The notes under the pieces are model-generated. The model was not told the DNA's origin. It did not search any database and worked only from the letters and a program-made list of their open reading frames with translations. A stretch of 64,000 nt of DNA from Myxococcales bacterium (lineage in GTDB: Bacteria; Myxococcota; Myxococcia; Myxococcales; UBA5297), in the NCBI GenBank assembly GCA_049841135.1, contig JASGHK010000008.1, positions 19,272 through 83,271 of the forward strand, given 5' to 3'. Each line of letters begins with the position of its first letter. Within the stretch, counting starts at the first letter, position 1. Of this stretch, positions 8,654 to 45,960 are shown in pieces. Position numbers and translations under genes: made by a program.

Positions 8654-9586
8654 ATGCGCTCCTTCACCCTCGCCCTCCTGTTGGCCCTCGCGGCCGCAAC
8701 CGCCTGCGCCGCCGCCAAGCCTGCGCCTCCGCAGAAGACCGACTTCGACTGGTTCGACGACGAGCTCCAGCTGGGAGACATCCAGCGCGGGCGGGTCGAG
8801 CGCCTCACGCTTCGCGCGCGCGCTGGCGAATCGGAGCTGGCGCTCGCGGAGGCCCTCTTGCGAGCCGGCCAGGACTGCCAGGCACGAGCCGAAGACGTCG
8901 TCAGCCGCGCCGAGGAGCTGCGCACGAACCATCCCCGCGATGCGCGAGCGCCCGAGGCCTTCCGGCGGGCAGAGGAGGCCGCGACCAAACTGCGCCAGTC
9001 GGCGAGCGAGGCCGCTGCTGCGGCCGACGCCGTCTACCTCGCGAACTCCGCCAAGGAAGCCGAGCAGGCCACGCGCGCGGAGGAGCCCGCTCCGTCGCCA
9101 CCGCCTCCTCCGGCTCCGGCCCCCGAACCTGCGCCGGCGTCCCCCGCGCCGACGGGAGACAGCGACTTGCTCAACGCCGCGGCGGAACAGGCCGGCAGCG
9201 CGCTGGCGGCCAAGCTCGCCCGGCACAAGGCCCGGTCGGTGGTGGTCACGCCCGCAGCCACCTTGATTGGCGACGAGATGCCCAAGCTGGCGCTCGCCTA
9301 CAAGAACAAGGGCGGGCAGGCGGACGTGTATGGACGCGCCTTCGCGCGCGGGCTCGCCGCGGCGCTGGCCAAGGCAGGCTTCAAGGCCACTTTCTCCAGC
9401 GACGTCCGCGGCCAGCTGGCGTCCGCGCCGGGCAAGCCGCAAGCGGACGTGTCGGAGGTGCGCATCCTCGTCTACGGCGCGCTGGCGACCCTGCCGAACG
9501 AGTTCGCGGCGTGGGAGTTGCGCGCGGTGGACCTCAACAACGACGGAATCCTTGGCGAGACCCAGGGCGTTCGCCGCGCGCGCTGA
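8654..9586 (+). CDS. hypothetical lipoprotein with Pro-rich linker (paralog of the previous gene)
   Basis: MRSFTLALLLALAAATAC lipobox at ATG 8654. Conserved C-terminal block ...VVVTPAATLIG...FARGLAAALAKAGFKATFS. Confidence 0.5.
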   Translation: MRSFTLALLLALAAATACAAAKPAPPQKTDFDWFDDELQLGDIQRGRVERLTLRARAGESELALAEALLRAGQDCQARAEDVVSRAEELRTNHPRDARAPEAFRRAEEAATKLRQSASEAAAAADAVYLANSAKEAEQATRAEEPAPSPPPPPAPAPEPAPASPAPTGDSDLLNAAAEQAGSALAAKLARHKARSVVVTPAATLIGDEMPKLALAYKNKGGQADVYGRAFARGLAAALAKAGFKATFSSDVRGQLASAPGKPQADVSEVRILVYGALATLPNEFAAWELRAVDLNNDGILGETQGVRRAR

Positions 9587-9720
9587 GCCCCGTCACCTCG
9601 AGCCCGTCGAGGGGCCAGAGCCCGGCGAGGGGCCAGAGCTTGTCGAGGGCCGGAGTCTGGTCTTTGCTTCACCGTCGGCCAGGCCGGCGCCGACCGTCCA
9701 CGGACAGCAGGGAGGGTGCA

Positions 9721-11304
9721 ATGCGTCTGAGCCTCGTGGGAGCCGACTTCGAGGAGAACCTCGGCCTGGGGATGATCGCCGCGACCGCGCAGCAGGCGGG
9801 CCACTCGGTCGTCGTCCACCCCTTCAACGACGTGCGGCAGGCCCGTGAGGTCGCCCGGCGCATCGCCTCGGCCCGGCCCGAGCTGGTCGGGCTGAGCCTG
9901 CAGTTCCAGCACCGCGGTCACGAGTTCGTGGCCCTGGCGCGGGCGCTGCGCGAGGCGGGCTACCGCGGGCACCTGACCTGCGGCGGCATGCTCGCCTCGG
10001 CGGCCTGGCAGCAGGTCCTGGCCGAGAAGGCGTTCGACTCGGTCGTCCTCTACGAAGGCGAGCAGACGATCGTCGAGCTGGCCGGTGCGCTGGTCGCGGG
10101 GCGGCCGCTGGCGGAGGTCCCGGGCCTGGCGCTGCGCGACGAGCGGGGCGAGGCCGTGCGCACCGCCGACCGGGAGCGGCCGAGCGACCTCGACGCGCTG
10201 CCCTTCCCCACCCGCTACCGGCCGCCGACCCGGCACCTGGGCATCCCCTTCCTGCCCGTCCTCGGCTCGCGGGGCTGCTGGGGGCGCTGCACCTTCTGCT
10301 CCATCAGCTCCTTCCACCTCGAGGCGAGCGCGCACGGCGGCGGGCAGCTCTTCCGCCGGCGCAGCCCGGAGAACATCGCGCAGGAGATGGCGCTGCTCGC
10401 GGGCGACGGCCCTGCCCTCTTCTGCTTCCACGACGACAACTTCCTCCTGCCGAACCCCAAGCACTCGCTGAAGCGCGTGCAGGAGATCCGCGCGGCTTTC
10501 GACGAGCTCGCCCCTGGCCCCCTGGGCATCATCGGCAAGACGCGCCCGGAGTGCCTGACGGCCGAGCTGGCGAAGGAGCTGCGCGAGCTGGGCGTGGTGC
10601 GGCTCTACGTCGGCGTCGAGAACACCTCCGAGACCGGCGCCGAGCACCTGGCGCGCGGCACCCAGACCCGGCACGTGCACTCGGCGCTGGCCGCCTGCCG
10701 CGAGGCGGGCATCTTCGCCTGTTACAACCTGCTCGTCTTCGAGCCCAAGACGACGCTCGCCGACGTGAAACAGAACGTCGCCTTCATGCGCGAGCCTGCC
10801 GCGCCGAGGCCTACACCGGTACCCCGCTGCACCGCTCGCGTGCCTCGCGCGACGCGCTCACCGGCAGCTGGCTGGGCTGGAACTACCGGCTCGAGGACGA
10901 CCGGGCCGAGCTGCTCTTCCGCATCTGCGCGGCCGCCTTCCGCGAGCGCAACTTCGGCGCCGACGGCGTCGCCAACCGGTCGATGGGCCTGGGCTACTGC
11001 GGCCGGATCCTCGAGCACTTCTACCCGGAGGCGTCCGCCGAGGCGGCGAAGCTCTCGCGCCGCGCCGCGGACCTGACCCGGAACATCGTCCTGGAGACCG
11101 CGAGCTTCCTGGAGGAGGCCATCGCGCTCGCTGAGACGACGCCGCTCGCCGAGCGCGACGCCATCGAGCGGCAGACGGCGCTGCTGGGGCTGCGCATCGC
11201 ACAGGCGGACCAGCCCTGGCACGCGGCGATGGACGAGTTCCACGCCGACGCCGACGCGCTCGTCGCCTCACTGCAGGCGAGCCGGCCGAAGCCCGCGTCG
11301 TGGA
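9721..11304 (+). CDS. B12-binding radical SAM protein; apparent -1 frameshift near 10792-10800; stop not found before the next gene
   Basis: N-terminal cobalamin-binding domain (LVGLSLQF...). CxxxCxxC motif LGSRGCWGRCTFCSI. The reading frame changes after ...NVAFMRE and continues HARACRAEAYTGTPL... in frame 0. That frame runs without a stop into the lipoprotein-like ORF at 11305. Confidence 0.65.
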
Positions 11305-11972
11305 TGCGGGTGGCGCGGCGGGTGGCGCTGGGCGCGACCTTGGTGCTCGGCGGCACGTCCTCCTGCGAGTGCTACAGCGTCGACATGGTCCCCTACGATC
11401 CCGACGCGATGGTGGTCGACCCGGTGCCCGGCGACGCTGGGGCGACCGACGCGATGGTCGCCGACCCGCTCCCGCCCGACGCCGGCACCTCCGACGCGAT
11501 GGTTGCCGATCCGCTCCCGCCCGACGCCGGCGCCTCCGATGCGCTGGTCGCCGACCCGCTCCCGCCCGACGCTGGCAGCCCAGATGCGGGCATGGTGGCC
11601 GATCCGGCCCCGGAGGACGCAGGAATGGCGGTCGATCCACTCCCCGAGGACGGCGGCCACGCCGCCCGGGAACCGGCCGGCCAGTGGCGCGACTCCGCCA
11701 CCTACGCCTTGCGCTCGAACGACCTTCCGCTCTTCTGCCCGCCTGCGGTGCGGCTGTGCGCCGTGCGCGACGGCGAGACGGTCCGCGTCACCGTCCAGGG
11801 AGCGCCCGGCCCGCTCAGCACGCGCTGCGAGACCTCGGGCATCGTCGTCGGCGAGGGCCGGGAGCTGACCTGGACTCCGGCGTCGGCGGACGACTCGCTG
11901 CGCGTCGCCGTTCGTTCCGCGGGCGGCGTGGCGGTGGTCTCGCTGCGGGCCTGCGAGGTCAAAGCGAGCTGA
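11305..11972 (+). CDS. lipoprotein-like protein with 5 tandem 13-aa repeats (DAMVADPLPPDAG); possibly fused to the radical SAM gene
   Basis: MRVARRVALGATLVLGGTSSC signal/lipobox. Five 39-bp DNA repeats at 11392-11640. C-terminal Cys-containing domain. It is in-frame with the upstream gene and has no intervening stop. Confidence 0.4.
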
Positions 11973-19228: not shown

Positions 19229-21331
19229 CTACTGCAATGCCTTCTCCGTCGCCCTCAGCAGCGCCTCCGCGCCCACCGGCGCTCCCGTGGCGTTCTCCAT
19301 CCACAGGTCGGGCACCACCGTGCCGAACTTCGCCATCCGCTCGAACTCCACGCCCAGCGCCGGCACCGTCTTCATCTTCTCTTCGATTTGGAAGGCGATG
19401 AGGTGGCCCATCGGGTAGTCGGGCGTGTACATCGGGTAGGCGATGAGGTGCGAGTAGATGCCGAGCAGGACCGTGTCCTTGCCGCCCAGCACCGGCGCGT
19501 AGAACTGGTTCCAGACGTCCTTGGAGATCTGCACCACCGCTTCGCGCATCTGCGTCGCGGTCGCGGTCGGGTGGTCGTAGAGCCAGTGCCAGGTCCGCAC
19601 GTCGACCAGCGCCACGCCGGCGATCTCCCAGGTCATCCAGAAGCTGTTGAGCGCCGCCAGCTTCTCGGCCTCGGGGTCCGGCTTGGCCAGCCCCAGCAGC
19701 TCCAGGTCGCGCGCCTGGAAGACGAAGGCGAAGGCCTCGGTGAAGGCGGTGTTGGGCACCCCCTGCAGCAGCGTGTGGTCCACCTCGTAGAGCGAGATGA
19801 CCTGCTCGACGTTGTGGCCCAGCTCGTGGATGGCGATGTTGTAGCCCTTGTAGTCCATCCCGTCCTTGCCGATGCGCGTGCGCAGCCGCGGGAAGTCGCC
19901 GCGCCGCGTCGCCTGCATGGCGTGGCCGGAGCCGCGCGCCGGGTCGACTCGAATATGGTCGGCCAGGAACTGTGCCTTCTCCTTGGGGAAGCCCAGGTCA
20001 GTGAGGATGCGCGGGAGGTCCGCGGCGAACGCCTTGGCGTCCGGGTACTTCTTCTTGGTGATGGCGTCGAGCTCGGCCTCGCTGAACTTCCCACGCGGCT
20101 GGAAGCCGTTGTACCAGAGGTCGAACGGCTCGAGCTTGCGGCCGAGCCGCTTCTCGATGCGCGCGGCGACCTTGCCGGCGAGCGGCGAGGAGGTCACCTG
20201 CGTGAGCATCCCCACCACCCGCTCCTCGGGGATCTCGCGGCCCAGGTCGAAGCGCCGGGCGATGACCGTCGGCGAGACCGGGCAGTATGGGTCCGCCGCC
20301 TTGTTGGCCTGGAACTGCGCCAGCCACTTCGCATAGCGCCGGTCGGGCTCGGGCGTGGCCTCGGCCTTGGGCGCCGCCGTCTTGGGCGCGCCGTCCTCCA
20401 CCTCCGCCGCCGGCGCGAGCGCGACGGTGTTCGCCACCGGGTCCCAGTCGACCCGCGGATCGTTCACCACCGCCGCGGGGATGGTCTGGGTCACGATGCG
20501 CTGCATGACCTGGGCGAGCAGGCGCTGCTTGGCGAGGCCGCTCTTGGCGTCGGCGTAGTCGGCCTTGAGCTGGTCGCGCAGGTTCCAGTGCGAGAGCAGC
20601 CGCAGGCCCTTGGGGAAGAGCCGCTCGCCGGCGGGGTTCACGAGGTGGTGCGCCCAGACGTTGTACTCGGCGATGTAGAGGTCGGCCTCGGCGCCGACCC
20701 GGGAGATCTGCTGCTGCACCTCGCCGGGGATGCGGAAGGCGAAGCCGGCGGTCAGCCGCGCCTCGGCCCACTGGCGGCGCGTCCAGTCCTTGCCCGCCAG
20801 CCGCTCCTTGAGCGTGGTGAGCGGGAAGTTGAGGAGGACGTGGAAGGCGATCTTCGAGTCGAAGAGGTCGTCGGTCAGGTGCGCCGCCGGGTCGAGCGCG
20901 GAGAGCATCGGGTCCACGGAGAGCAGCGGGCCCTCGTCGACGTCGGTGGCCCAGCGCAGCGAGCGGCCGATCTCGTTGAAGGCGCCGCCGACCTGCTCGA
21001 AGGTCGCCTCCAGGCGGTCGAGCGTCGCGTCGAGCTGCTGGGGGTCGGCGATGAAGTTCTCCTGCACGAACGCCTTGAAGTCGCCGTCCTTCTCGCGCCA
21101 CAGCGCCGCCACCTGCTCGACGCCGCGCTCGATGCGCACGCGCTGCGCCTCGCCGTGCTTGGCGACCAGGGCCGCCTTGAGCTCTGCGCACTCCTTCTTG
21201 AGATCCATCGGTCCCTCCACTGCCTGGGCTTGCGGCTTGGCGTCGGACTTCACGCTGGGATTAGTCGAGCAGCAGGCGCCGAGCGAGAGCGCGCACGCCG
21301 AGAGGACGGCCATTCGTCGGGTCGAAGTCAT
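19229..21331 (-). CDS. zinc metallopeptidase-like lipoprotein (HEXXH: IAIHELGHNVEQ)
   Basis: MAVLSACALSLGACC lipobox. A single HELGH motif in a roughly 700 aa protein. The peptidase family is not assigned. Confidence 0.6.
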   Translation of the reverse strand: MTSTRRMAVLSACALSLGACCSTNPSVKSDAKPQAQAVEGPMDLKKECAELKAALVAKHGEAQRVRIERGVEQVAALWREKDGDFKAFVQENFIADPQQLDATLDRLEATFEQVGGAFNEIGRSLRWATDVDEGPLLSVDPMLSALDPAAHLTDDLFDSKIAFHVLLNFPLTTLKERLAGKDWTRRQWAEARLTAGFAFRIPGEVQQQISRVGAEADLYIAEYNVWAHHLVNPAGERLFPKGLRLLSHWNLRDQLKADYADAKSGLAKQRLLAQVMQRIVTQTIPAAVVNDPRVDWDPVANTVALAPAAEVEDGAPKTAAPKAEATPEPDRRYAKWLAQFQANKAADPYCPVSPTVIARRFDLGREIPEERVVGMLTQVTSSPLAGKVAARIEKRLGRKLEPFDLWYNGFQPRGKFSEAELDAITKKKYPDAKAFAADLPRILTDLGFPKEKAQFLADHIRVDPARGSGHAMQATRRGDFPRLRTRIGKDGMDYKGYNIAIHELGHNVEQVISLYEVDHTLLQGVPNTAFTEAFAFVFQARDLELLGLAKPDPEAEKLAALNSFWMTWEIAGVALVDVRTWHWLYDHPTATATQMREAVVQISKDVWNQFYAPVLGGKDTVLLGIYSHLIAYPMYTPDYPMGHLIAFQIEEKMKTVPALGVEFERMAKFGTVVPDLWMENATGAPVGAEALLRATEKALQ

Positions 21332-21659: not shown

Positions 21660-22119
21660 TCAGAACGACACCCCGAGCCCCAGCGCCCCGCGCACTCCCG
21701 GCCGCGCGACCGTCCCCCGCCCTTCCACCTGCGGCAGGTGCAGCAGCGCCTCGACCGCCGCCGAGGCGAAGAGCGGGTCGACGATCGGGAGACGCACGCC
21801 GCCTCCCACCCCCACCACCGGCACGAGCGCGGTCCGCACGCCCTGCTTCTGCACCTGCTGCCGCCACCACTGCTCGTCGAAGCTCGCCCACGCCCGCAGG
21901 TCCAGCCGCCGCAGGGCCCACTCGGTGCCGAGCGAGGCCCCCAGCCCCACCACCGTGGTGTCGGCCACCGTGTCCACCGTGCGCATCGACTGGTGCTCCA
22001 CCTGCAGGCGCAGCCCCACCTCGACCGGCGCGAAGCGCAACCCGTAGGAGAGCCGCACCAGCGGCGTCGCGCCCATGCCGACCACCGCCGCGCTCTGCAC
22101 GCCGCCCTCCAGCATCAGC
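21660..22119 (-). CDS. small beta-strand-rich ORF ending in Phe (OMP-like C-terminus); separate gene or C-terminal domain of the caspase protein
   Basis: Its ATG overlaps the caspase-frame TGA (TGATG). Alternating hydrophobic pattern, terminal ...GLGVSF. No signal peptide. Confidence 0.3.
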
Positions 22120-23222
22120 CGGTGGCGCCGCAGCAGTCGAAGCTCTTCGCCCCCAGCCGCGCCTCGCCTCCCCAGGGCAGCTCCGCCTGCGCCGCGCCGA
22201 CGCTGGAGTCGGTGCGCAGGTAGACGACGTAGCGCCCCGGCGGCACGGCGAGCCGCAGCGGGCGGCCGGCAGCCTTGTCGGCCTCGGCGATCACCTGGCC
22301 GGCCCCACGCTCGCTCACCACCACCTGCCCCGCGACGCCGTCCTCGATCTCGATCGAGGCCATGGCCTGCGTCAGGTCGCTCACCACCACCTCGCCGCGG
22401 CCCGAGATGTCGAAGTGGAAGGCGGGGTGCTGCAGCGAGCCCGTCCACGCCGCGGTGGCCCGCTCGGTGTTGCGCGCGGCGAAGGCGTGCAGCTCGGCCA
22501 GGCTCACCCGCCGGTCGCCATCGGCGTCGGCGGCGCCGCGCAGCCCGGAGAGAAGGAAGTGCGTGAAGATCGACCCGCCGAGCGAGCCCATCTCCCTGGG
22601 CCTGCTCGGCGACGTCGGCGGAGACCAGCGCCGCGAAGCCCCGGACGCCCGCCGGCGGCTGCGCGGCGACGGCGAACCCCTTGGGCAGGGTGAGCGTCCC
22701 CGCCTGGCAGGCGTCGACGAACGCCACGCGGAGCTCGGCGGGACCCGACTCGAGGCGCGCGCGCAGCTCGTCCCAGGGCAGGCGCGTCGCGCCCAGGTGC
22801 AGCGCCTTCTCGTCCGCGTGGCCCGAGTAGAAGAACAGGAGCACCGCGGGCTCGGCGCTGGTGCGCACCCGCTCCTCGGCCTGCGCCAGGGCCGCCTTCA
22901 GCGCGGCCGCGTCGCCGCCCAGCACCAGGAAGAGGTCGTCCGCCGCCACCCCGCTCAGCTCGCGCAGCGCCTGGGCCATTCGCTGGGCGTCGGCGCGGGC
23001 GAAGCGCAGCTCCACCTCCCCGGGCGCGCCGAGGTCGTTGCCGGCCACTACCGCGACGCGGCGACCGAGCGGAGATGCCGCGGCCGTCGCGCCCCACAGC
23101 GCGACGGCGACGGCGACGGCGATGGCCGGAGCCAGCGCCTCAGCGGCTCTGGTTGCGGAGCAGGCCAAGGCGCGGGATTGCCCGGTGAGTGAGGAGGACG
23201 AGATCGTCGAGGTGGTCTCCAT
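22115..23222 (-). CDS. caspase-like (peptidase C14) domain protein; apparent +1 frameshift near 22595-22600
   Basis: His/Cys dyad contexts FFYSGHA and FVDACQAG. After ...AEQAQG the frame shifts to MGSLGGSIFTHFLLSGLRGAADADGDRRVSLAEL. The 5' end overlaps the stop of the upstream lipoprotein, so the start is uncertain. Confidence 0.6.
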
Positions 23223-25677
23223 CGAGGTCCCAGGGTACGACGGCTCTGAGGTAGCCGGCGGTGTCGGTGGAGTGCACGTCGAGGCTGGCCGCGCTCAGGA
23301 AGCGGCCCCCGCGAGCGACGAACGCCTTCACCTGCGTCCCGTCCTGCGCCCACGCCACCACGTCCCTCAGGCCGTCGCCGTCCACGTCCCCCACCTCCAT
23401 CGCCTTGCAGTCCTCGAGGTCCACCGGGCCCGACTGTCGGACGACCTCGAGCTCGTTCGCGGATGTCAGCCGGAGGGAGGCGACGCTGCCAGGACTGGCG
23501 GAGTCGACGAGGAACAGCTCGGCAGCTCCGTCGAGCCCGCGGCGGACCTTGCTGCTCCAGGGCTCCAGGTAGCTGCCGCCGAGCTGCGCGGGCAGCCGGG
23601 CAAGCAGGTGTCGCGAGGCCCCGCCCTGCCCATCGGAGAACCAGATCTCCAGCCGGCCGTGGTGATCCGCCGGGTCCTCGGTGATGGCGAAGAAGTCGTC
23701 ACGGCCGTCGCGGTCGAAGTCGAACATCCGCGGCGCCGACCACGAGTCCTTGAACACCTCGGCTGGCAGCGTGACCGGCTGGAGCTCTCCGGAGACGTCG
23801 CGATAGAGCCTGAGCTCGGCCCGGTCGAGGTGACGCAACCAGACCAGGATGGCGCAGTGTCCGGAGTCGAAGGGCCGCCCCGCCTCCAGCGCCTGGCCGA
23901 AGAAGTCCTCGGTGTCGTTCAGCACCAGGCTCGCCCGACGCTCCAGGCCGCTCTTGCCAGCCCCGAACACCATCGCGCCGTCCTTCAAGGCCCTGGTCCG
24001 ATAGTGGATCACCAGCTCGTCGACGCCGTCGCCGTCGAGGTCGCACGCCTTCGCGTCCCCGATGCCGTTCCTCGGCTCGTCCGGGCTGTTCGCGGGCCAC
24101 TCGGCCGCGTAGTTGACCGAGGCCGTCTGCCGGGCCGCGTCCTTGACCTCGAAGAATGCGACGGAGGGCCCTGCCCCCACCGCCACGGTTCCCAGGGCGC
24201 CAAAGTTCCCGGACGCCAGGTGCCAATTGCCGACCGTCTCCGGGTCCGTGCCGGGCGCGAGGGCAGGCCAGCCGGCGGAGAGCCCGTAGGAGTCGCCGAA
24301 CCTGGCGCGGAGGACGCCCGCGTCGCGCAGCACGAGGTCGCCGCCCTCGATGCCGTCGAGCTCGGCCATGCCCAGGAAGGCGGACTCGGTGCTGCCCACG
24401 AGCGTCTGGGCGCCGTTCAGCCACCGGTAGACGCAGGTGCCGGCCGCGCAGCCCCAGACGGTCTGGCCCTTCGCGCCGAACGGCGAGTAGTGGGCCGCGT
24501 ACGAGGCGGCGGACTGCAGCTGCTCCCCGAAGACGCGCCCCTGGTTCGTGTAGAGGACCGAGCCGTCGATCACCAGGTCGAGCTGCGGCGGCGCGGTCAC
24601 GGCCGCGGGCTGCAGGCCCGTCGCGTGGCCCGTGCCCACCCACTCCTCGGTGAAGGTCGGCCCGTAGCGCACGTGGACCCGGGCCTCCGGGCCGATCCAG
24701 GCGAGATCCGCGTGGCCGTCCCGGTCGAAGTCCTGGTAGGCCAGCTGCGTGCGCCACTCCGCGGTCCACTGGTCCATCAGCAGCTCGACGCCCTCCACCG
24801 GGTCCAGGACCGTCACCGCGCCCGAGTCCGAGAGGCGTGCCTCGCGCAGCGTCGGGTGGTGCTTCAGGGTCTCGGAGCAGCCAGCCCAGTCGGCCTGAAC
24901 GACCAGCACCATGAGGCGCTGCTCGTAGTGCTCGTCGAGCTCTCCTGGCAGCACGGCGAGCACGCTCTCCTCCGGTCCCACCGGCAGGTCGATGGGCGCC
25001 CCGAGCCGGCCCTGGGCGTCGCTCAGCCTGAGCATGGAGCCGAGGAGCAGGTCGGCCTGGCCGTCGCGATTGGCGTCGACGACCTGGTGCGTGCAGCTGT
25101 TCGTCTCGAAGCGCTGCGAGAAGACGAAGCGCGCCCCGCTCTCGCGGTTGAGGAAGACCACGGCTTCCCAGGTCGGGGCTGTGGAGAAGACGAGGTCGTC
25201 GAGGCCGTCGCCGTCGAGGTCGCCCAGCTGCGGGCGGTCGAGCTGGGCCAGGTCGAGGGGCTCGCCGGCGGGATCGAGGACGAGCCCGGGGCGGTTGAAG
25301 AGGACGGTGTCCGCGTAGTAGCGCAGCCCCGGGGTCCAGCGGGCCTGCTGCCCGTTGGCCGCGCGCACGACGAGATCGGCGATGCCCGGCGTCCCCTTCG
25401 GCGCGAGGAAGCTCAGCTGCTCGCTGTCGCGCCGCGCCACCAGCGAGACCGGTTGGCCTGCGACGAGCACCTCGACGCCCTCGGCGAAGTGCGTGCCCAG
25501 CACGGTCACCTCGACGCCTCCGGCCGCGGGCACCGCGTCGGGGAGCACGTCGGTGAGGGTGAGGTCGACGGACAGCGAGCCGTCGACGACCGAGTCCAGG
25601 CACCCGGTGGCACCGACGAGGAGCAGCGAGGCGAGGCAAGACGCGAGGCGGGCAGGAGCGATGCGGGGGCGACGCAT
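23140..25677 (-). CDS. large lipoprotein with N-terminal IPT/TIG-like domain and FG-GAP/VCBS (DxDGDGxxD) repeats
   Basis: MRRPRIAPARLASCLASLLLVGATGC lipobox at ATG 25677. Repeated DLDGDGLDDLV, DFDRDGHADL, DLDGDGVDELV and DVDGDGLRDVV calcium-binding-like loops. Confidence 0.7.
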   Translation of the reverse strand: MRRPRIAPARLASCLASLLLVGATGCLDSVVDGSLSVDLTLTDVLPDAVPAAGGVEVTVLGTHFAEGVEVLVAGQPVSLVARRDSEQLSFLAPKGTPGIADLVVRAANGQQARWTPGLRYYADTVLFNRPGLVLDPAGEPLDLAQLDRPQLGDLDGDGLDDLVFSTAPTWEAVVFLNRESGARFVFSQRFETNSCTHQVVDANRDGQADLLLGSMLRLSDAQGRLGAPIDLPVGPEESVLAVLPGELDEHYEQRLMVLVVQADWAGCSETLKHHPTLREARLSDSGAVTVLDPVEGVELLMDQWTAEWRTQLAYQDFDRDGHADLAWIGPEARVHVRYGPTFTEEWVGTGHATGLQPAAVTAPPQLDLVIDGSVLYTNQGRVFGEQLQSAASYAAHYSPFGAKGQTVWGCAAGTCVYRWLNGAQTLVGSTESAFLGMAELDGIEGGDLVLRDAGVLRARFGDSYGLSAGWPALAPGTDPETVGNWHLASGNFGALGTVAVGAGPSVAFFEVKDAARQTASVNYAAEWPANSPDEPRNGIGDAKACDLDGDGVDELVIHYRTRALKDGAMVFGAGKSGLERRASLVLNDTEDFFGQALEAGRPFDSGHCAILVWLRHLDRAELRLYRDVSGELQPVTLPAEVFKDSWSAPRMFDFDRDGRDDFFAITEDPADHHGRLEIWFSDGQGGASRHLLARLPAQLGGSYLEPWSSKVRRGLDGAAELFLVDSASPGSVASLRLTSANELEVVRQSGPVDLEDCKAMEVGDVDGDGLRDVVAWAQDGTQVKAFVARGGRFLSAASLDVHSTDTAGYLRAVVPWDLDGDHLDDLVLLTHRAIPRLGLLRNQSR

Positions 25678-25821
25678 GAAGGTCTCCTTTCGACCGGGTT
25701 GCCCTAAGGACGTCCGGCGCCGGAAAAGTGGGAAGGCCGGGCTTCGGGCTGCGGGCTTCGAGCTTCGCGTCAAGCACGTCGGGCTTCGGGCTTCGCCGGC
25801 CTGCCGTGTCCGAAGCCTTCC

Positions 25822-26586
25822 CTACCTCCGCTCCGCCTCGATGAGCAGGCTCGTGACCTGGGCCTGCACGCCCTTCGCCAGCGCCAGCGCGTCGACCTTC
25901 GACGGCTCCCCCCCGGCGGCGCGCAGCGCTTCTCGCAGGCGAGCCTCCAGGCTCTGGGGATTGAGGGGCTGCATGGAGGTGAAGAGCAGCAGGCGCTGCG
26001 ACGGGTTCGCCGCGTCGAGCGTGAGCCTGGGCGGCGCCGACGGAGCCTCCGGGCCGCCGGCGCCGAGAGGCTGGACGGTCTCCGGCGCGGAGAGCACCAG
26101 GAGCAGCCACTGCGCCTGCGGCCCCGAGGGCACCTTGGGATCAACCGCGTCTCCCGCCTGCAGCGCCTCCGTTCCTGCCGCGACCCAGCTCCTGTCGCCG
26201 CGATGGATGACGAAGACCCCTGCCCCGCCGCCCTTGGCCAGGACATCCGGGCGCTGCGGGTCCGCGCCGAACCTCGGCCCCAGCATCAGCACCACCAGCG
26301 CCGTCGCGGCCAGCGGCGGCAGCGCCAAGGCCGGCCACCTCCACCAACGCCTGCGAGGCTCGTTCGGGCCTTCCCTCGCCAGAGTCCGGAGCCGCGCCGC
26401 CGCGGCCGCCGGTGGATGGCGCAGCAGGAACGCCTCGCGCTCGGCGCGGGCGGTCTGGAGCTTGGACGCGCAGGCCGCACAGGCCTCCAGGTGACGGCGG
26501 GCGAGGCTCGCTTCGTCCTCGGTCACGGCCTCGGCCAGGAGGCGATCGACGAGGTGGTTGGGCAGGTGGTCGCCTAGCGGTTCCAT
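25822..26586 (-). CDS. anti-sigma factor (zf-HC2 type)
   Basis: MEPLGDHLPNHLVDRLLAEAVTEDEASLARRHLEACAACASKL, then a TM segment. Overlaps the sigma gene by 13 nt. Confidence 0.65.
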   Translation of the reverse strand: MEPLGDHLPNHLVDRLLAEAVTEDEASLARRHLEACAACASKLQTARAEREAFLLRHPPAAAAARLRTLAREGPNEPRRRWWRWPALALPPLAATALVVLMLGPRFGADPQRPDVLAKGGGAGVFVIHRGDRSWVAAGTEALQAGDAVDPKVPSGPQAQWLLLVLSAPETVQPLGAGGPEAPSAPPRLTLDAANPSQRLLLFTSMQPLNPQSLEARLREALRAAGGEPSKVDALALAKGVQAQVTSLLIEAERR

Positions 26587-27059
26587 CGTGTCAGGACCTC
26601 CCGGGCCCGCTCCTCGAGCCTGCGGAGCCGGTTGCCGATCGTCTTGCGCGAGACGCCCAGGGCGCTCGCGGCCTCCTCCTGGCTCATCTCCTCGACGTGC
26701 ACCAGCACCGCCACCTGCTGCGAGTCGAGGTCCAGCGCCGACAGCAGCCGCCCGCAGGTGTCCTGGCGCTGCAGCGCGGCTTCGAGGTCCGCCGGGGCGC
26801 CGCCTGCGGCGCGGTCGCGAAGCTCGCCTTCCCATGCCGATCCGCGCCGCGCCCGGAAGCGCAGCCGATCCAGGCTGAGGTTGACCGCGCTGGTCGTCAG
26901 CCAGTCCACCAGCGCCTTCGGGTCCGCGGGACCGCCCTTGAGGTAGCGAAGGAACACCTCCTGCACCACGTCGTCGGCCTCGGCCTCGCCCACGATGCGT
27001 CGGGCCTTGGCATGGACCAGCGGCGCGAACCTTCGGTAGAGCTCCTCGAGCGTGTCCAT
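26574..27059 (-). CDS. ECF (sigma-70 family, group 4) RNA polymerase sigma factor
   Basis: Region 2 (DDVVQEVFLRYL) and region 4 HTH (EEMSQEEAASALGVSRKTIGNRLRR). Confidence 0.85.
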   Translation of the reverse strand: MDTLEELYRRFAPLVHAKARRIVGEAEADDVVQEVFLRYLKGGPADPKALVDWLTTSAVNLSLDRLRFRARRGSAWEGELRDRAAGGAPADLEAALQRQDTCGRLLSALDLDSQQVAVLVHVEEMSQEEAASALGVSRKTIGNRLRRLEERAREVLTRWNR

Positions 27060-27179
27060 GCGGTTGTCGGGGCCGCTGACTTCAAGGACGTCCGGGCCTG
27101 CTTTTCTGGGAAGGTGGCGTGGCTCGAACTACCTTCTGGCGGGCTGGGGCGCAAGGGCAGGCCGGCGAGGGCCGCCCTC

Positions 27180-27300
27180 GGGGCCAGGTTCCGAATCCGA
27201 AAACTCGTCCGGTGGGGCGAGGCGGGGCCAGGTTCCGAATCCGAAAACTCATCCGGTGGCTCGAGGCGGGGCCAGGTTCCGAATCCGAAAACTCGTGGTC
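27180..27300. repeat. 3 x about 45-bp tandem repeat (ggggccaggttccgaatccgaaaactcRtccggtggNNcgaggc) in the divergent promoter region
   Basis: Direct visual repeat at 27180-27300, between the ECF sigma start (27059, minus) and the secreted-protein gene (27443, plus). Confidence 0.75.
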
Positions 27301-38472: not shown

Positions 38473-41400
38473 CTACTGCACCCGGATGGTGAAGGACCCG
38501 GTCAGGGTCGAGGAGTAGGAGTCCACGTAGAGGTAGTACGTGGTGCCCGCCGCGCCGTTGATGGTGAGCGTCTCGGCGCCGCTGTACGAGGCATCCGAAG
38601 CGTTGACGCAGGTCGAGCCGGTGCCGCCGCAGGTGGTGGTGGTGTACCAGACGGCCACGTCCCAGGAGGCCGGCGTCACCGTCACCGTGAAGTTGCCGGC
38701 GGCGGTCGGCGTGTAGCTGTAGACGACCTCCTTACCCGGCGCGTTGTAGTCGCCCATGCCCGCGTAGCACGTGCTCGACAGGCTCGAGCCGTAGTCCGCG
38801 ACCGCCAGCGCGGTGTCTCCGGACACCGTGGTGCCCAGCGTGAGCGGGATGGCGTTGGCGCCGTCGGTGCCGCAGGCGTCGTTGGCCGGCGGGTCCATGG
38901 TCACGAGATCCAGCTTGTACGCACCGGCGGAGCTCGAGTACCCGTCGACCCACACGTAGTAGGTGGTGTTGGCCGTCGGGGCGGTGAGCGTCACGGAGGC
39001 GATGGTGCCCGCCGCGTTGCTTGTGCCGGCGCTGGAGTTGTACGTGCAGGCGACCTGCGCGGCGGCGGCAGTGTCCGAGCAGGCCGAGCGCACGTAGACC
39101 AGCGGCTTGAGCGAGCCGGTGTTCGACGCGGTCAGGGTCACCTTCACCGGCTTCGGCGTCGCGCCGGAGTTGAAGGAGTAGACGACGTCCCCGCCCGTCG
39201 TGCTCGACGTGCAGCCGCTGGTGGGCAGCGTGGTGGCGTCGGCGCCCAGCGTGTTCCCCGTCACGGAGATGGGGCCGGCGGTGACGTCGCCCAGGTCCTG
39301 GGCGCTCGTGCACGCGTCGTTGGCCGGGGCGTCGACCGGGATCAGGTCCAGCTTGTAGCCACCGATCGCCGAGCTGTAGCCGTCCACCCACACGTAGTAC
39401 GGCGTGTTGGCGGTCATCCCGGTCACGGGGATGCCCACCGTCCCGCCTGCGGTGCTCGAGTAGTCGCAGGCGACCTGGGCGGTGGCGGTCTCGTCGGCGC
39501 AGGCCTTGCGGACATACACCAGCGGCTTGAAGTCCTGCGTGGTGCTGCTGAGCAGGACCTGCACGCCCTTCGGCGTCGCTCCGGAGTTGAAGGAGTAGAC
39601 GACGTCCGCGCCGGTGGTGCTCGAGGTGCAGCTGGTGGTCGGCAGCGTCGAGGCGTTGGCGAGGTAGGTGTACCCCGACGCCGTCAGCGGCCCGGCGCTC
39701 ACGTCGCCCAGGTCCTGGGCGGTGGCGCACACGTCGTTGGTGGGCGGCAGGATTGGCGCCCCCGTCTTCAGCTCCAGCGTGAACTTGCCGTAGCTGCTGG
39801 CCAGGCCGTCGACGACCACGAAGTACTGGCCGGCGGCGAGGTTGTAGGCGGTGGCGGCGACCGCCACCGTGCTGCTGCTCTTGGCGCACGCCTTCTCGTC
39901 CGCCGAAGCCGGACTGGCGCAGTTGCTGCGCAGGTAGACCGCCGGCTGCCAGCCCGTCGCCGACGCGTCTGGCGTCACCTTGGCCACCACGGAGGCCGCC
40001 GCGGAGAGGCTGAAGGTGTAGACCACGTCGCTGCCGGTCATGGTCACGCCGGTGCCGCCGCAGGTGCCGCTGTAGTCGTCGAAGGCGGCCGAGGTGTCCC
40101 CAATCACCGTGGCCTGTCCCGAGCCGGCGGTCAGCGCCGCGGTCAGGTCGTGGACACCGCCGGAGGTGACCGCCGAGCAGAGGTCGTTGGCGGGCGGAGC
40201 CGGGGGATCGGCCAGGGTCACGGTGAGGGTGAACGGCCCCTTGGAGGTGCTGTACCCGTCGGCCCAGAGGTAGTAGGTGCCCGCGGGGAGGCGCCGGTAG
40301 CTGAAGGCCGCGGGGGTTGCCCCGCTGCTCTCCTTGCAGGCCAGCTCGTCGGCGGCGGCGACGGTGGTGCACTGGCCCTTGCGCAGGTAGACCACCGCGG
40401 TGTTGGTGGTGGTGGCGAAGGCCATGCTCACCTGCAGGTCCTTCACGGCGCTGGTCGTCAGCTCGTAGACGAGGTCGTTGCCCAGGCCGGTCCCGCAGCT
40501 GCCGACGCTGCCGCCGTTGGTCTTGGCGCTGGTGGTGTCGCCGTTGAGGACCACCGTGCCGTTGCCGGCGGCGTCAAACCCGGCGATGGCGCTGGGGTTG
40601 CTGCAGTCCTCGTTGGTGATCGTCCCCACCGCGGCGCCGGTGACCTCCAGCTTGAAGGCGCCGGTGGTGCCGCCGGTGCCGTCGACCAGCACGAAGTAGG
40701 TGCCGGCCGGCAGGTACTCGGCGGTGGCGGTGACCGCGGTCCCGGCGGTGGTGGTGGAGGCGCAGGCGCGCTCGCCGTTGCCGGTGCCCGGGCAGCTGGC
40801 GCGGATGTAGACGCCGGGGGCCAGGGTGGTCGGCGCCACCGGGGTCACCTTGGCGGTCACCTTCTGCGGCGCGGCCAGGGTGAAGGAGTAGACGAGGTCC
40901 GCCCCGGTCATCGCCGCGCAGGCGCCGGTGAGGTCGTCGGTGGCGTACCAGGTCTCGGCCTCGGCGGTGGCGGTGGTGCCGTCGACCGCGCCCAGGTCGA
41001 AGGTCCCGGAGGCGCCGGCGCAGACGTCGTTGGCCGGAGCCGCCGGGCTGTCGGTGACGGTCACCTCCAGCGCCACCGGCCCCCGGTCCGTGCTGGAGAA
41101 GGCGTCGACGTAGACGTAGTAGCGGCCGGCGGGCTGCTTGCGCGCGGTGGCCGTGGCGGTGGTGAGGCCCGTGCCGGCCAGGGCGCAGGCCACCTCGTTG
41201 GCGTTGTCCGTCACTCCGCTGTTGCAGGCCTTGCGGATGTAGACGTTGGGGCGCCAGGTGCCGCTGGCCAGGGTGACCTTGGCCGCGAGGTCCTTGTAGC
41301 CGCCGGCCGGCAGGTCCACGGCGTAGACCAGAATCCGGACCCGAGGAGGTGTTGCAGGAGCCGTTGGTGTCGCCGACGGCCAAGGCGGTGTCGGCGTTGA

Positions 41401-44400: not shown

Positions 44401-45436
44401 CGACGCAGGCGTGGGCCGCGACGTCGCACACCGGCTTGCCGCTCACGCCGGCGCAGTCGGCGCTCTCGCCGCACCCGGGCTGGCAGAGGTGGACCGCGGT
44501 GTCGCAGTAGTGGCCCGCGGCGCAGTCGGCGGTGGCCAGGCACGCCACGCAGACCTTGTTGGCGGGGTCGCACTTCTTGTCGGCGCCGGTGCAGTTGGCG
44601 TCGGACAGGCAGGTGACGCAGGTGCCGGCGGCGGTGTCGCACAGCGGCTTGCCCGCCACGTTGGCGCAGTCGGCGTCGCCGGCGCAGCCCGCCTTGCAGC
44701 GGTGGTCGGTGCTGTCGCAGTAGGCGCCCTGGCCGCAGTCGGCCTTGGCCAGGCACTCGACGCAGACCTTGGCGGCCGCGTTGCACTTGGGCGTCGTCCC
44801 GCCGCAGTCGCCGTCGGCGAGGCAGGCCACGCAGGCGTGGGCCGCGGTGTCACAGACCGGCTTGCCGGCGACACCGGCACAGTCGTCGCTCTCGTTGCAG
44901 CCCGGCTTGCACGCCCTGGCGTCGCAGTAGTTGCCCGCGGCGCAGTCGCTGGTCGCAAGGCACGCCACGCAGGCCTTGGCGTCGGGGTCGCAGCGCTTGG
45001 TGTCGCCGGTGCAGTCGCCGTCGAGCAGGCAGCCCACGCAGGTGTTGGTGGTGGTGTCGCACAGCGGCTTGCCGGTGACCGTGGCGCAGCCGGCGTTGTC
45101 CTGGCAGCCCGCCTTGCAGTGGAAGCTCGAGTCGCAGAAGGTGCCGTCGCCGCAGGTGGCGCACGGGGTTCCGCACCCGTTGTCGCCGCACTCCTTGCCG
45201 AAGCACTGGGGAACGCAGGTGTCGGTGCAGGTGTTGTTGGTGGTGTCGCAGGTCTGGTTGGCGCCGCAGCACGTCGTGCCGCAGGGCTTGGCGCAGCCGG
45301 CGTCGGGTTTCACCGCGGCGTCGGGTTTCACCGAAGCGTCCTGCGCGACGTTGGCGTCGGGGGTGAGTTCGATCTCTTCGGGACAACCAGCGAGGAGCAA
45401 GGCGGCCAGGAGGCCGATGCGAGTCAGCAGTTTCAT
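38473..45436 (-). CDS. giant (about 2,320 aa) cell-surface lipoprotein: about 12 Cys-rich 45-aa repeats followed by about 14 repeated beta-sandwich (PPC-like) domains; apparent +1 frameshift near 41331
   Basis: GGAGG RBS. MKLLTRIGLLAALLLAGC lipobox at 45436. Repeats of ...CD.A...CV.CL...DC......CD......C..GC. The repeated module is roughly 145 aa. After ...NTSSGPD the frame shifts and continues LVYAVDLPAGGYKDL. An extra T in gatt explains the shift. Confidence 0.75.
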
Positions 45437-45960
45437 TCGTCCCCTCCAGAGGGAGACAGGTTTTAGGTTCGCGCCAGCATACGGCACTGTCGTTCCAGCA
45501 CAAACCCCAGCCGCGAACATCGGCCTGCGAGACCGGATCGGCGGCGTGGACGGGCGCCCCGAGTGGATCCCCGGCGAAGGGCTGGAAGTGGAGCTCACCT
45601 ATACGGTGACGGTCCGCCCGCGACCGCCATCACGACCCGAATGGGGAAGCAGAACGGGCGTTGCGCCCGCGAGCCGGTGGTGGTCTCACCGGCCGCCGGT
45701 ACCGCTCGCGCAACGCGGCGAAGCCGGCCCCTACGGATGAGCGTGGATGCGTTCAGCCGCACGGTTGGCCGTCGCCGCGATGGGCAGCAGCGGGTTGACG
45801 CTGTGCTGCCGTCGACGATGACTAGCCAGCCAAAGCGCCACCGACGGCATGGCGCCCATGGCCTACGGCAAACCGTCCGCCTGGGCGACCACGACGTGAA
45901 CCTCACCGCGCTCGTCCTTAAGAGCCGCTCGAAGCCGAAGCTCGCGGGCGTGGCATCGGC

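Follow-up and report, generated by a model that had tools for sequence, protein, structure and literature searches.

A widespread bacterial cluster of genes for a stress sigma factor, its membrane anti-sigma factor and a predicted outer-membrane-anchored caspase-like protease

Bacteria rely heavily on ECF sigma factors for envelope signalling. We know of no protease identified for the first anti-sigma cut in most ECF groups, and of no substrates for most bacterial caspase homologues. Genes of these two kinds have been known to lie together since 2012, when Asplund-Samuelsson et al. reported that four of the five metacaspases of Myxococcus xanthus are found in operons with sigma factors, and that the same arrangement occurs in Anaeromyxobacter, Haliangium, Sorangium, Ralstonia and Fibrobacter (PMC3501461). 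The locus described here, which lies in a 64-kb stretch of DNA from a Myxococcales bacterium (the window), is an operon of the same kind as these sigma-70-family/metacaspase operons. That survey reported the co-occurrence together with a cell-death reading, and did not describe an anti-sigma partner, an outer-membrane barrel, a promoter motif, a motif shared between the proteins or an FG-GAP variant; a literature search for functional studies of sigma/metacaspase operons found none. The cluster is widespread in bacteria and functionally uncharacterised.

Several better-described systems share parts of its logic. In type III-E Craspase (Csx29 TPR-CHAT, Csx30, Csx31, RpoE), the Csx29 protease cleaves the anti-sigma-like Csx30 in a linker, and one group of Csx30 proteins ends in a DUF4384 domain (bioRxiv 10.1101/2022.08.17.504292). 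There, as we infer for the window locus, a caspase-fold protease governs an ECF-type sigma factor by cutting the flexible linker of an anti-sigma-like protein. Craspase, however, is cytoplasmic, guide RNA/target RNA-activated and of CHAT type, whereas the window protease is predicted to be periplasmic, anchored in the outer membrane and of the C14 type, with no CRISPR link. The anti-sigma factor DdvA of Myxococcus xanthus carries a periplasmic CHAT domain that has been proposed to make the first cleavage, and the DdvS/DdvA pair resembles the window locus in joining a myxobacterial ECF sigma factor and a zinc-motif transmembrane anti-sigma factor to a caspase-fold periplasmic protease (PMC11506125). 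In DdvA, though, a TPR-CHAT region of about 900 residues is part of the anti-sigma polypeptide itself, and within a dimer it works in trans (PMC11506125). The window anti-sigma factor has only 254 aa; its periplasmic part is a DUF4384-type beta domain of about 130 aa, neither CHAT nor TPR occurs in it, and the C14 protease is encoded separately and predicted to lie in the outer membrane. For ECF54, control by neighbouring proteases (carboxypeptidase, subtilase and the caspase-fold CHAT) has been proposed from gene context; this group was described without an anti-sigma factor (PMC8999054), unlike the window locus, which has a clear one. DUF4384 is also found fused to 23 cyanobacterial orthocaspases (PMC8283722). 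Finally, the locus resembles RseA-DegS/RseP (sigma-E) and FecA-FecR-FecI in that an outer-membrane or periplasmic event would be relayed to a single-pass anti-sigma factor, whose removal would free the ECF sigma factor to drive its own operon. It encodes, however, neither a PDZ serine protease nor a TonB-dependent transducer: none of the domains of FecIRA-type cell-surface signalling was found in the four proteins, the barrel has 8 strands rather than 22, and the candidate site-1 protease, in contrast to DegS, is a caspase-fold cysteine protease encoded within the operon.

The window locus consists of four genes, encoding an ECF sigma factor, an anti-sigma factor, a TIG/FG-GAP lipoprotein and a caspase-barrel protein. 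An earlier note, made from the sequence alone, had counted five; alignment with homologues reveals that its caspase gene and its small tail ORF are pieces of one gene. The features, in the order of transcription, are as follows.

27084 to 27114, minus strand: promoter-like motif, copy 1, CCTTCCCA-N11-CCGGACGTCCTT, ending 25 nt upstream of the sigma ATG (27059)
26574 to 27059, minus strand: ECF (group 4) sigma factor, 161 aa (Pfam and TIGR02937)
25822 to 26586, minus strand: single-pass anti-sigma factor, 254 aa (zinc motif, one transmembrane helix, AF2)
25706 to 25736, minus strand: promoter-like motif, copy 2, exact, between the anti-sigma and FG-GAP genes (144-nt gap)
23140 to 25677, minus strand: TIG/IPT and FG-GAP beta-propeller lipoprotein, 845 aa (Pfam, lipobox)
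22597 to 23168, minus strand: caspase-barrel gene, piece 1, first frame, signal peptide and N-terminal half of the metacaspase-like domain (homology to P0001)
22594 to 22596, minus strand: lesion 1, GGG run against GG in two relatives, a +1 frameshift (DNA alignment, frame translations)
22115 to 22593, minus strand: piece 2, second frame, C-terminal half of the caspase domain and beta-sandwich (homology to P0001)
22134 to 22135, minus strand: lesion 2, junction of a 43-nt deletion relative to loci L003 and L004 (DNA alignment, protein comparison)
21660 to 22134, minus strand: piece 3, first frame, 8-stranded OmpA/OmpX-like outer-membrane barrel, ending ...GVSF (homology to P0001)

The first three genes are what the earlier note took them for, and the NCBI annotation agrees on all of them (sigma MGC4121989, protein MGC4121989.1; anti-sigma MGC4121988; TIG gene MGC4121987). 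The sigma factor has the small size and the sigma-2 and sigma-4 regions of ECF (group 4) sigma-70 proteins, with Pfam Sigma70_r2 (46.3 bits) and r4_2 (31.1 bits) both above their cut-offs, no region 3 in the Pfam search, and a score of 69.9 bits against the ECF profile TIGR02937 (cut-off 42.9); its NCBIfam matches are to generic profiles only. The anti-sigma gene overlaps it by 13 nt. The product has the marks of a class I zinc-binding (ZAS, zf-HC2) anti-sigma factor, namely a helical N-terminal domain with the zinc motif H32-x3-C36-x2-C39 (encoded at 26470-26493) and a gene lying directly after that of the sigma factor, although Pfam zf-HC2 itself scores below threshold here (13.4 against 22.2 bits) and above it in the L085 orthologue (23.5 bits). 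One transmembrane helix (residues ~85-102) is followed by a flexible linker containing K118-G119 (within 26227-26241) and by a periplasmic Ig-like/DUF4384-type beta domain (residues 124-251). The AF2 model (pLDDT 86 overall) has a helical bundle at residues 10-71 (pLDDT ~97), while linker residues 103-123 are unstructured, with pLDDT below 50 at 104-111. The Ig-like sandwich has no significant neighbour in the PDB and the DUF4384 profile (PF14326) gave no match in the window protein itself; it does match 8 of 20 aligned family members (E <= 0.01), including that of L086 at 30.8 bits against a cut-off of 27. Anti-sigma homologues came from an exhaustive HMMER search, a word search having returned the query protein alone, and in 42 of them the zinc-motif His and two Cys, K118 and G119 are each kept in at least 90%.

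The lipoprotein combines FG-GAP repeats (FG-GAP_3, 86.2 bits; FG-GAP, 53.3 bits) and a TIG domain (31.8 bits) with an ATGC lipobox, whose Cys at residue 26 is kept in four orthologues, and its ATG is preceded by an AAAGGAG ribosome-binding site. The earlier description of the genes as separated by short gaps or overlaps thus holds for the 13-nt sigma/anti-sigma overlap and fails at the 144-nt anti-sigma/lipoprotein interval, which is not merely a short gap, since it carries a promoter-like motif.

The fourth gene changes frame twice, at an extra G (22594-22596) and at a 43-nt deletion near 22135 that costs the sandwich-barrel linker about 14 codons and shifts the frame. The stretch from 23168 to about 22597 matches the family in the first frame, 22591 to 22115 in the second, and 22134 to 21660 in the first once more; the GC3 signal (GC at third codon positions) also changes frame at lesion 1. 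Piece 1, which likely starts at a TTG at 23168, overlapping the lipoprotein gene by 29 nt, is 71% identical to residues 14-169 of the homologue P0001 and holds the catalytic His (SGHAD, 22812-22826), the catalytic Cys (DACQAG, 22698-22715) and an LPKGF loop (22674-22688). Piece 2 (72% identity to residues 172-322) ends at a TGA stop at 22115-22117 and is listed by NCBI as a separate 158-aa hypothetical protein, MGC4121985.1; piece 3 is 62% identical to residues 345-495. The profile check bears out the Peptidase_C14 assignment of the earlier note (26.1 bits, cut-off 21.4), with one frame covering only profile positions 1-137 of 233; the continuous ORF from the lipoprotein stop to the TGATG that the note assumed does not exist. 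Its beta-strand-rich tail ORF (ATG 22115 to 21660; 153 aa in the note, 151 aa here) does have the TGATG (22113-22117) and the C-terminal Phe ascribed to it, and is the detached C-terminal barrel domain rather than a gene of its own. We consider it highly improbable that the locus comprises five genes in their own right, joined by translational coupling, the last of them for a small outer-membrane protein, as the TGATG overlap and final Phe might suggest: the tail region is fused to the caspase in most of 107 homologues (about 480-560 aa), the tail ORF taken alone lacks a signal peptide for export as an outer-membrane barrel, the upstream caspase frame is itself broken, and the junction is the very site of the 43-nt deletion. 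Two other accounts of the sequence were discarded. Programmed frameshifting at CAGGGAG finds no slippery sequence, the two relatives being simply one G shorter. A 520-codon open frame (21660-23222) is off the frame of the homologues and of GC3 in its middle 160 codons, and an alternative frame of this kind is expected to be open in a genome of 72% GC with GC3 near 0.97.

In this assembly, then, the caspase-barrel gene is either a recent pseudogene or mis-assembled. Genuine recent loss, with the module decaying in this organism, has close to an even chance of being right. Two lesions fall within one gene, a 43-nt deletion is atypical of base-calling error, the barrel stands as a separate ORF lacking a signal peptide, and the Archangiaceae relative L085 has itself lost barrel strands 1-4 (410 aa); with two independent lesions in the protease, the locus would no longer work as a unit. 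All three pieces, however, keep a GC3 of about 0.95-1.0 and 62-72% identity to P0001, so that any decay must be very recent, and elsewhere in the 64 kb an unrelated gene carries a frame-breaking deletion of about 22 nt, which, in a metagenome-assembled genome with a 1.65-Mb contig, suggests an indel-prone assembly. That the breaks are assembly or consensus errors, and that the gene in the organism itself is whole, at about 500 aa, is an explanation to which we give just under even weight: it accounts for the three indels that break frames in two genes of this 64-kb piece of a very long metagenomic contig and for the full coding signal of every piece, and the anti-sigma gene is likewise split in another long-read MAG (L086, 'ont.bin'). 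Against it, deletions of 43 and about 22 nt exceed the usual homopolymer errors, and in the NCBI record the pieces are deposited and annotated as proteins of their own. Frameshifts can mislead operon readings that are based on domains in high-GC MAGs; one gene was here read as two, and in the NCBI annotation as three.

What the intact protein looks like can be taken from its relatives. All 107 homologues found are caspase family proteins, most of them laid out over about 480-560 aa as a signal peptide, a metacaspase-like domain, a beta-sandwich and an 8-stranded OmpA-like barrel, and 63 of them end in Phe. The AF2 model of P0001 (pLDDT 89.6) contains all three folded domains, with the eight barrel strands at residues 342-494. 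In Foldseek searches it matched caspases, MALT1 and legumain, and its barrel matched OmpA, NspA, OmpX and Ail (target-normalised TM-score of 0.72 for the OmpA transmembrane domain), so that the intact family protein has an outer-membrane barrel of the OmpA TM/OmpX/NspA type. The closest solved sequences in the PDB are metacaspases, Pfam Peptidase C14 scores 43 bits in P0001, and the family has both the caspase-hemoglobinase fold and the His-Cys dyad of C14 peptidases. Across 35 homologues His96 and Cys133 never vary, nor do Asp39 and Asp131. These two Asp align with D25 and D137 of AtMC4, which we take to be S1-pocket residues of metacaspases, and predict a basic P1 specificity, i.e. cutting after Lys or Arg. 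A common origin of the beta-sandwich and the anti-sigma periplasmic domain was considered and rejected (hhalign probability 0.3%).

The caspase-barrel family occurs in at least 566 species-level genomes, and the module is present in most of the loci examined, which included Myxococcus, Anaeromyxobacter, Archangium and Fibrobacterota MAGs. Among the 76 related loci with upstream sequence, 54 have the order sigma, anti-sigma, caspase, an order that gene calls from four further genomes confirm; the same-strand module joining an ECF sigma/anti-sigma pair to a C14 protease, as the earlier note proposed it, is thus conserved. An anti-sigma family gene lies immediately 5' of the caspase gene in 62 of the 76 and a sigma gene is found in 54, the loci with both numbering 54. 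The anti-sigma-like gene is absent from 14 of the 76, and in some paralogues the anti-sigma-like/caspase pair is kept without an adjoining sigma gene. The core consists of the sigma, anti-sigma and caspase-barrel genes and extends across several phyla. The FG-GAP lipoprotein, which the note had made part of the system, is instead a clade-specific insertion between the anti-sigma and protease genes, outside the general core: a homologue stands 5' of the caspase gene in L001/L002, L003, L085 and L087/L088, that is, in every clade member seen, and L004 has a weak C-terminal trace of one. The gene downstream of the cluster (19229-21331) is not kept beside the module in relatives. Nor is there support for the death-related role suggested in the note, since the predicted topology is periplasmic and outer-membrane and the linkage is strongest to the anti-sigma factor. 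Identity as a defence system was dropped after PADLOC models gave no match among the four proteins.

A second link between the genes is a bipartite promoter-like motif, CCTTCCCA-N14-GACGTCCTT, present in identical copies 5' of the sigma and FG-GAP genes. A search of the 64 kb at up to 3 mismatches returned these two exact copies and nothing else, where 0.01 matches are expected. The orthologous site in L087/L088 (8731-8761) has the same boxes and the same spacing with a different spacer sequence; the motif was not found 5' of the L087 sigma gene. Across related loci, GTTCCCA-N17/18-GTC lies 5' of the sigma gene in 12 of 46, against 1.5% of control windows, and is confined to the closer sigma relatives. 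The motif may be the sigma factor's own promoter, in which case the sigma factor would drive its own expression and co-induce the FG-GAP and protease genes. Independent promoters had been named in the earlier note as evidence that would tell against a co-regulated module; the internal site, being an exact copy of the pre-sigma site, argues for co-regulation. Neither the cluster end, searched for a terminator, nor the 144-nt gap, searched for structured RNA, folds better than shuffled sequence (RNA-structure z-scores of 0.36 and 0.57), and a sigma-70 promoter/terminator scan yielded nothing useful.

The third link is a short motif of the type [TV]R[ILM]KG, common to the anti-sigma linker and to the loop that follows the catalytic Cys of the caspase. 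In the anti-sigma factor, K118-G119 is at least 90% conserved in two independent alignments. Among 87 caspases with an intact DxCx[SA]G, the post-cysteine loop, which is of low confidence in the P0001 AF2 model, carries KG in 85 and RG in 2, exactly 9 residues past the catalytic Cys in 86. The three residues preceding the Lys also vary together: P4-P2 are identical between the anti-sigma factor and the caspase of one locus at 29 of 78 positions, compared with 16.7 in shuffled pairings and with 0 of 20,000 shuffles reaching 29, a statistic that ignores phylogeny and could be inflated by conservative lineages. Examples of such within-locus agreement are LSK/LSK in L001 and NRTK/NRTK in L081.

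These observations suggest a model in which an orthocaspase-like protease, held in the periplasm and tethered to the outer membrane through its own C-terminal 8-stranded barrel, would act as a site-1 protease, cutting the juxtamembrane linker of the anti-sigma factor after the conserved Lys ([TV]R[ILM]K|G), much as Craspase cuts Csx30; the sigma factor would next be set free by intramembrane proteolysis. The protease carries such a motif itself, 9 residues past its catalytic Cys, where caspases self-process. We propose only tentatively that the outer-membrane metacaspase-like protein is the dedicated site-1 protease of the DUF4384 anti-sigma factor, recognising a motif present in both proteins and turning an outer-membrane or periplasmic cue into sigma release; we regard this as possible rather than probable.

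Several points weigh against this. The Lys-Gly pair could simply cap the opening strand of the periplasmic domain, 5 residues further on; adjacency is equally expected of a protease that is a plain sigma output; of the four genes in the window, the protease gene alone is broken; and the anti-sigma gene is missing from a share of the loci, as counted above.

It is also conceivable, if less likely than not, that the protease, with the clade's FG-GAP lipoprotein, serves only as sigma output, as an envelope-remodelling, quality-control or death effector, and leaves untouched an anti-sigma factor that senses another signal through its DUF4384 domain. ECF operons commonly hold members of their own regulon, the duplicated promoter motif is equally compatible with co-induction, the 2012 survey gave such operons a cell-death reading (PMC3501461), and the Lys-Gly pair does lie near the start of a folded domain. 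Against an output role, the anti-sigma gene accompanies the caspase in more loci (62 of 76) than the sigma gene does (54 of 76), and the pair persists without a sigma gene; the co-varying motif shared by the two proteins is left unexplained, and the precedent of Craspase and Csx30-DUF4384 points the opposite way. The broader reading, of a conserved envelope-signalling module made up of a sigma factor, an anti-sigma factor, an outer-membrane-tethered orthocaspase and, in this clade, a lipoprotein, with its own promoter and with cleavage of the anti-sigma factor, comes somewhat short of an even chance in our judgement.

The sigma/anti-sigma pair and the caspase are thus linked in three ways, by gene order across phyla, by a shared promoter motif and by a shared short motif, which together supply a concrete candidate substrate, cleavage site and read-out. 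Myxococcus xanthus, reported to carry four such operons, would allow all three to be tested. If the cleavage model is true, the family would be a periplasmic, CRISPR-independent counterpart of Craspase-Csx30, to which the FG-GAP lipoprotein of this clade would be an added sensor or tether.

The cluster at 21660-27059 on the minus strand, which an earlier note had read as five genes, is real and conserved, but it comprises four genes. It lies in DNA of about 72% GC that forms part of a 1.65-Mb contig from a metagenome-assembled 'Myxococcales bacterium' (NCBI locus tags QM765_468xx), and all of its genes are on the minus strand. For the sigma, anti-sigma and lipoprotein genes, the three NCBI gene calls are identical to ours.

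Features of the cluster. Identities, and the residue ranges given with them, refer to P0001, a homologue of the caspase-barrel protein.
26574-27059, minus: ECF sigma factor, 161 aa; Pfam r2 and r4_2 over their cut-offs, TIGR02937 at 69.9 bits against a cut-off of 42.9
25822-26586, minus: anti-sigma factor, 254 aa; 13-nt overlap with the sigma gene; H32xxxC36xxC39; one TM helix; periplasmic beta domain
144-nt gap between anti-sigma and lipoprotein genes, minus: next ATG at 25677, preceded by an AAAGGAG ribosome-binding site
23140-25677, minus: TIG and FG-GAP lipoprotein, 845 aa, with a lipobox Cys
23168 to about 22597, minus: caspase-barrel segment, first frame; 71% identity to residues 14-169
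22591 to 22115, minus: caspase-barrel segment, second frame; 72% identity to residues 172-322
22134 to 21660, minus: caspase-barrel segment, first frame; 62% identity to residues 345-495

Downstream of the cluster by 328 nt, a predicted 700-aa lipoprotein (19229-21331, minus) carries a metallopeptidase motif, HELGH (HExxH), and matches nothing in Pfam or NCBIfam; its gene is not conserved beside the module in relatives. Elsewhere in the window (38473-45598, minus), the profile of GC at third codon positions (GC3) shows two coding stretches of great length on one strand that differ in frame and meet near 41,330-41,350; they may be two genes or a further frameshift.

A homologue search using the caspase gene with its reading frame repaired returned 107 proteins, the top one at 70% identity. 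Most of these are about 480-560 aa long, many are annotated 'caspase family protein', and they run on through the region that had been proposed as a separate 153-aa 'tail ORF', most of them ending in Phe. Because this region is continuous with the caspase protein in homologues, the separate tail gene does not stand; caspase and tail are a single gene that is broken in the window. The GC3 signal, at 0.95-1.0 all along, changes frame at the same two points as the homology. DNA alignment with the two nearest relatives places the first lesion at 22594-22596, where the window has GGG and the relatives GG, and the second near 22135, where 43 nt are missing, taking away about 14 codons of the linker preceding the barrel. 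The frame switches in homology and GC3 therefore make the 520-codon ORF at 21660-23222 a composite, and we rejected it as a real product, its middle third being out of frame. Taken as a separate ORF, the 151-aa tail lacks a signal peptide and therefore could not reach the outer membrane.

These frame breaks may be an assembly artefact, the source being a metagenome-assembled genome (MAG) with a very long contig in which an unrelated gene of the same 64 kb also carries a frame-breaking deletion. In this gene, which encodes a B12-binding radical-SAM protein (ORFs 9511-11076 and 10551-11972, plus strand), the frame changes without a stop codon at about 10,790-10,812; homologues have FMREHATHPINFCRAEAY where the window has FMRE and then, in the other frame, CRAEAY, a switch that implies a deletion of about 22 nt. 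In the NCBI annotation the gene is represented only by a C-terminal piece of 329 aa (MGC4121975.1). An anti-sigma gene is likewise split in another long-read assembly, an Anaeromyxobacter 'ont' MAG (L086 5255-6004, the same as L009), where gene calling gives a zf-HC2-like ORF of 71 aa and a DUF4384 ORF of 162 aa, probably through a frameshift. The breaks may equally be a true lesion that has left a pseudogene: base-calling errors do not typically delete as many as 43 or about 22 nt, and half of the barrel is gone in an Archangiaceae MAG (L085 8001-9233), whose orthologous caspase protein has just 410 aa following an in-frame internal deletion of roughly barrel strands 1-4, so that the barrel is damaged in a second member of the FG-GAP clade.

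The architecture of the intact protein was taken from an AlphaFold2 model of P0001, built with 35 homologues (pLDDT 89.6).

Domains in the AlphaFold2 model of P0001.
Residues 15-235: caspase-type alpha/beta domain
Residues 240-325: beta-sandwich, then a short linker
Residues 342-494: eight long strands (barrel)

Foldseek searches against the PDB matched the barrel to the OmpA transmembrane domain (target-normalised TM-score 0.72), NspA, OmpX and Ail, and the caspase part to caspases 1/7/9, MALT1 and legumain; by sequence, metacaspases are the closest solved proteins. His96, Cys133, Asp39 and Asp131 are invariant, the two Asp residues aligning with metacaspase positions that, we assume, form the basic-specificity pocket. 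Since the protein begins with a signal peptide and ends in a barrel, the caspase domain is predicted to be periplasmic and tethered to the outer membrane.

In a scan of one genome per species, at least 566 loci encode a caspase-barrel protein, mostly in Myxococcota, with some in Fibrobacterota, Acidobacteriota and Gemmatimonadota MAGs. Neighbours were counted, with profile HMMs built from the loci themselves, wherever the upstream sequence reached 1.8 kb or more, which was so in 76 loci. The anti-sigma family lies directly upstream on the same strand in 62 of these, an ECF sigma is present in 54, and both occur together in 54. Called-gene tables repeat the gene order in a Deltaproteobacteria MAG, an Archangiaceae MAG, a Myxococcus isolate and an Anaeromyxobacter MAG. 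An FG-GAP/TIG gene separating the anti-sigma gene from the caspase gene is confined to the clade of the window, where every member seen has it. Some paralogues retain the anti-sigma-like and caspase genes alone. Such a pair in Myxococcus sp. CA023 (L010 9024-12163), with no adjacent sigma gene, encodes a 296-aa anti-sigma-like protein (TVRIKG) followed by a 750-aa caspase protein in which a far longer, repeat-rich C-terminal region replaces the 8-strand barrel; loci L014, L016, L020 and L044 are arranged similarly. In one protein (P0146, 421 aa) the anti-sigma family region comes after sigma-70 r2/r4 regions; this protein is either a true fusion or a read-through call over the usual overlap.

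A 31-nt pattern, CCTTCCCA-N11-CCGGACGTCCTT, has exactly two copies in the 64 kb, one ending 25 nt ahead of the start codon (ATG) of the sigma gene and the other 29 nt ahead of that of the FG-GAP gene; no further copy was found there at 3 mismatches (0.01 expected). In the nearest relative with an intergenic gap (L087/L088), both boxes precede the FG-GAP gene at equal spacing with a different spacer sequence, and no such motif was found before the sigma gene of L087. Of 46 related sigma genes, 12 are preceded by GTTCCCA-N17/18-GTC, which is present in 1.5% of control windows. The 31-nt motif looks like the sigma factor's own promoter, of which one copy would serve autoregulation and the other the FG-GAP and caspase pair. 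Upstream of the internal copy, GAAGCCC repeats are abundant in the anti-sigma/FG-GAP gap (25737-25821, minus), whose RNA fold is not better than that of shuffled sequence (z-score 0.57). The divergent intergenic region holds a 44-nt tandem repeat (27179-27296; 2.7 copies, 94% matches, TTCGGAACC in each copy) 65 nt upstream of the sigma promoter-like motif; the 28-nt core of the repeat is found three times there and, within the window, at no other place.

Members of the anti-sigma family consist of an anti-sigma domain at the N-terminus, a TM helix and then a DUF4384-type domain; the DUF4384 profile matches 8 of 20 members, and zf-HC2 exceeds threshold in one orthologue. In two independent alignments, a Lys-Gly located 7-35 residues past the TM helix is kept in at least 90% of sequences, usually within [TV]R[ILM]KG. 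In the AlphaFold2 model of the window protein (pLDDT 86) this is K118-G119, located in the unstructured part that connects the TM helix to the first strand. The protease carries a KG as well, in the loop past the catalytic Cys, which is where caspases cut themselves: among the 87 homologues with an intact DxCx[SA]G, 85 have KG and two RG, exactly 9 residues past the Cys in 86 and mostly as [TA]R[RLV]KG, in a part of the AlphaFold2 model with low confidence. The three residues preceding the Lys (P4 to P2) are identical between the protease and anti-sigma factor of one locus at 29 of 78 positions, against 16.7 in shuffled pairings, with examples such as LSK/LSK and NRTK/NRTK and a Leu shared in position by the two window proteins. 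In 20,000 shuffles the value of 29 was never attained; since the shuffle ignores shared ancestry, the matching is only suggestive of a link between the two proteins.

With the architectures, the topology that they imply, the gene linkage and the duplicated motif established, we infer that the protease would cleave the anti-sigma linker after the conserved Lys, that intramembrane proteolysis would then release the sigma factor, and that the freed sigma factor would raise expression of the whole gene set. The main rival explanation makes the protease merely an output of the sigma factor. Three precedents make the inferred mechanism plausible: Csx29, the protease of Craspase, cuts Csx30, an anti-sigma-like protein, within a linker, and DUF4384 is the C-terminal domain of some Csx30 proteins (10.1101/2022.08.17.504292); in myxobacteria, the anti-sigma factor DdvA has a periplasmic caspase-fold domain that has been proposed to initiate cleavage (PMC11506125); and DUF4384 is fused to 23 cyanobacterial orthocaspases (PMC8283722).

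Operons of a sigma factor and a metacaspase were reported in 2012 from Myxococcus, Anaeromyxobacter, Haliangium, Sorangium, Ralstonia and Fibrobacter, with no mechanism proposed (PMC3501461); M. xanthus DK1622 reportedly has four paralogous ones. We found no later functional work on these operons in the searchable literature. As far as we could find, anchoring by an outer-membrane barrel, the promoter motif, the motif shared by protease and anti-sigma factor and the FG-GAP-containing variant are new, as is the finding that the tightest neighbour is a DUF4384 anti-sigma partner. The window locus has no PADLOC match and differs from FecIRA, DegS/RseA and DdvA, belonging to none of these systems. 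We regard it as an ECF regulated-proteolysis variant within an operon family noticed before but never characterised, of which the window holds a copy whose protease gene, as assembled, is frame-disrupted; the cleavage hypothesis can be put to a direct test in M. xanthus.
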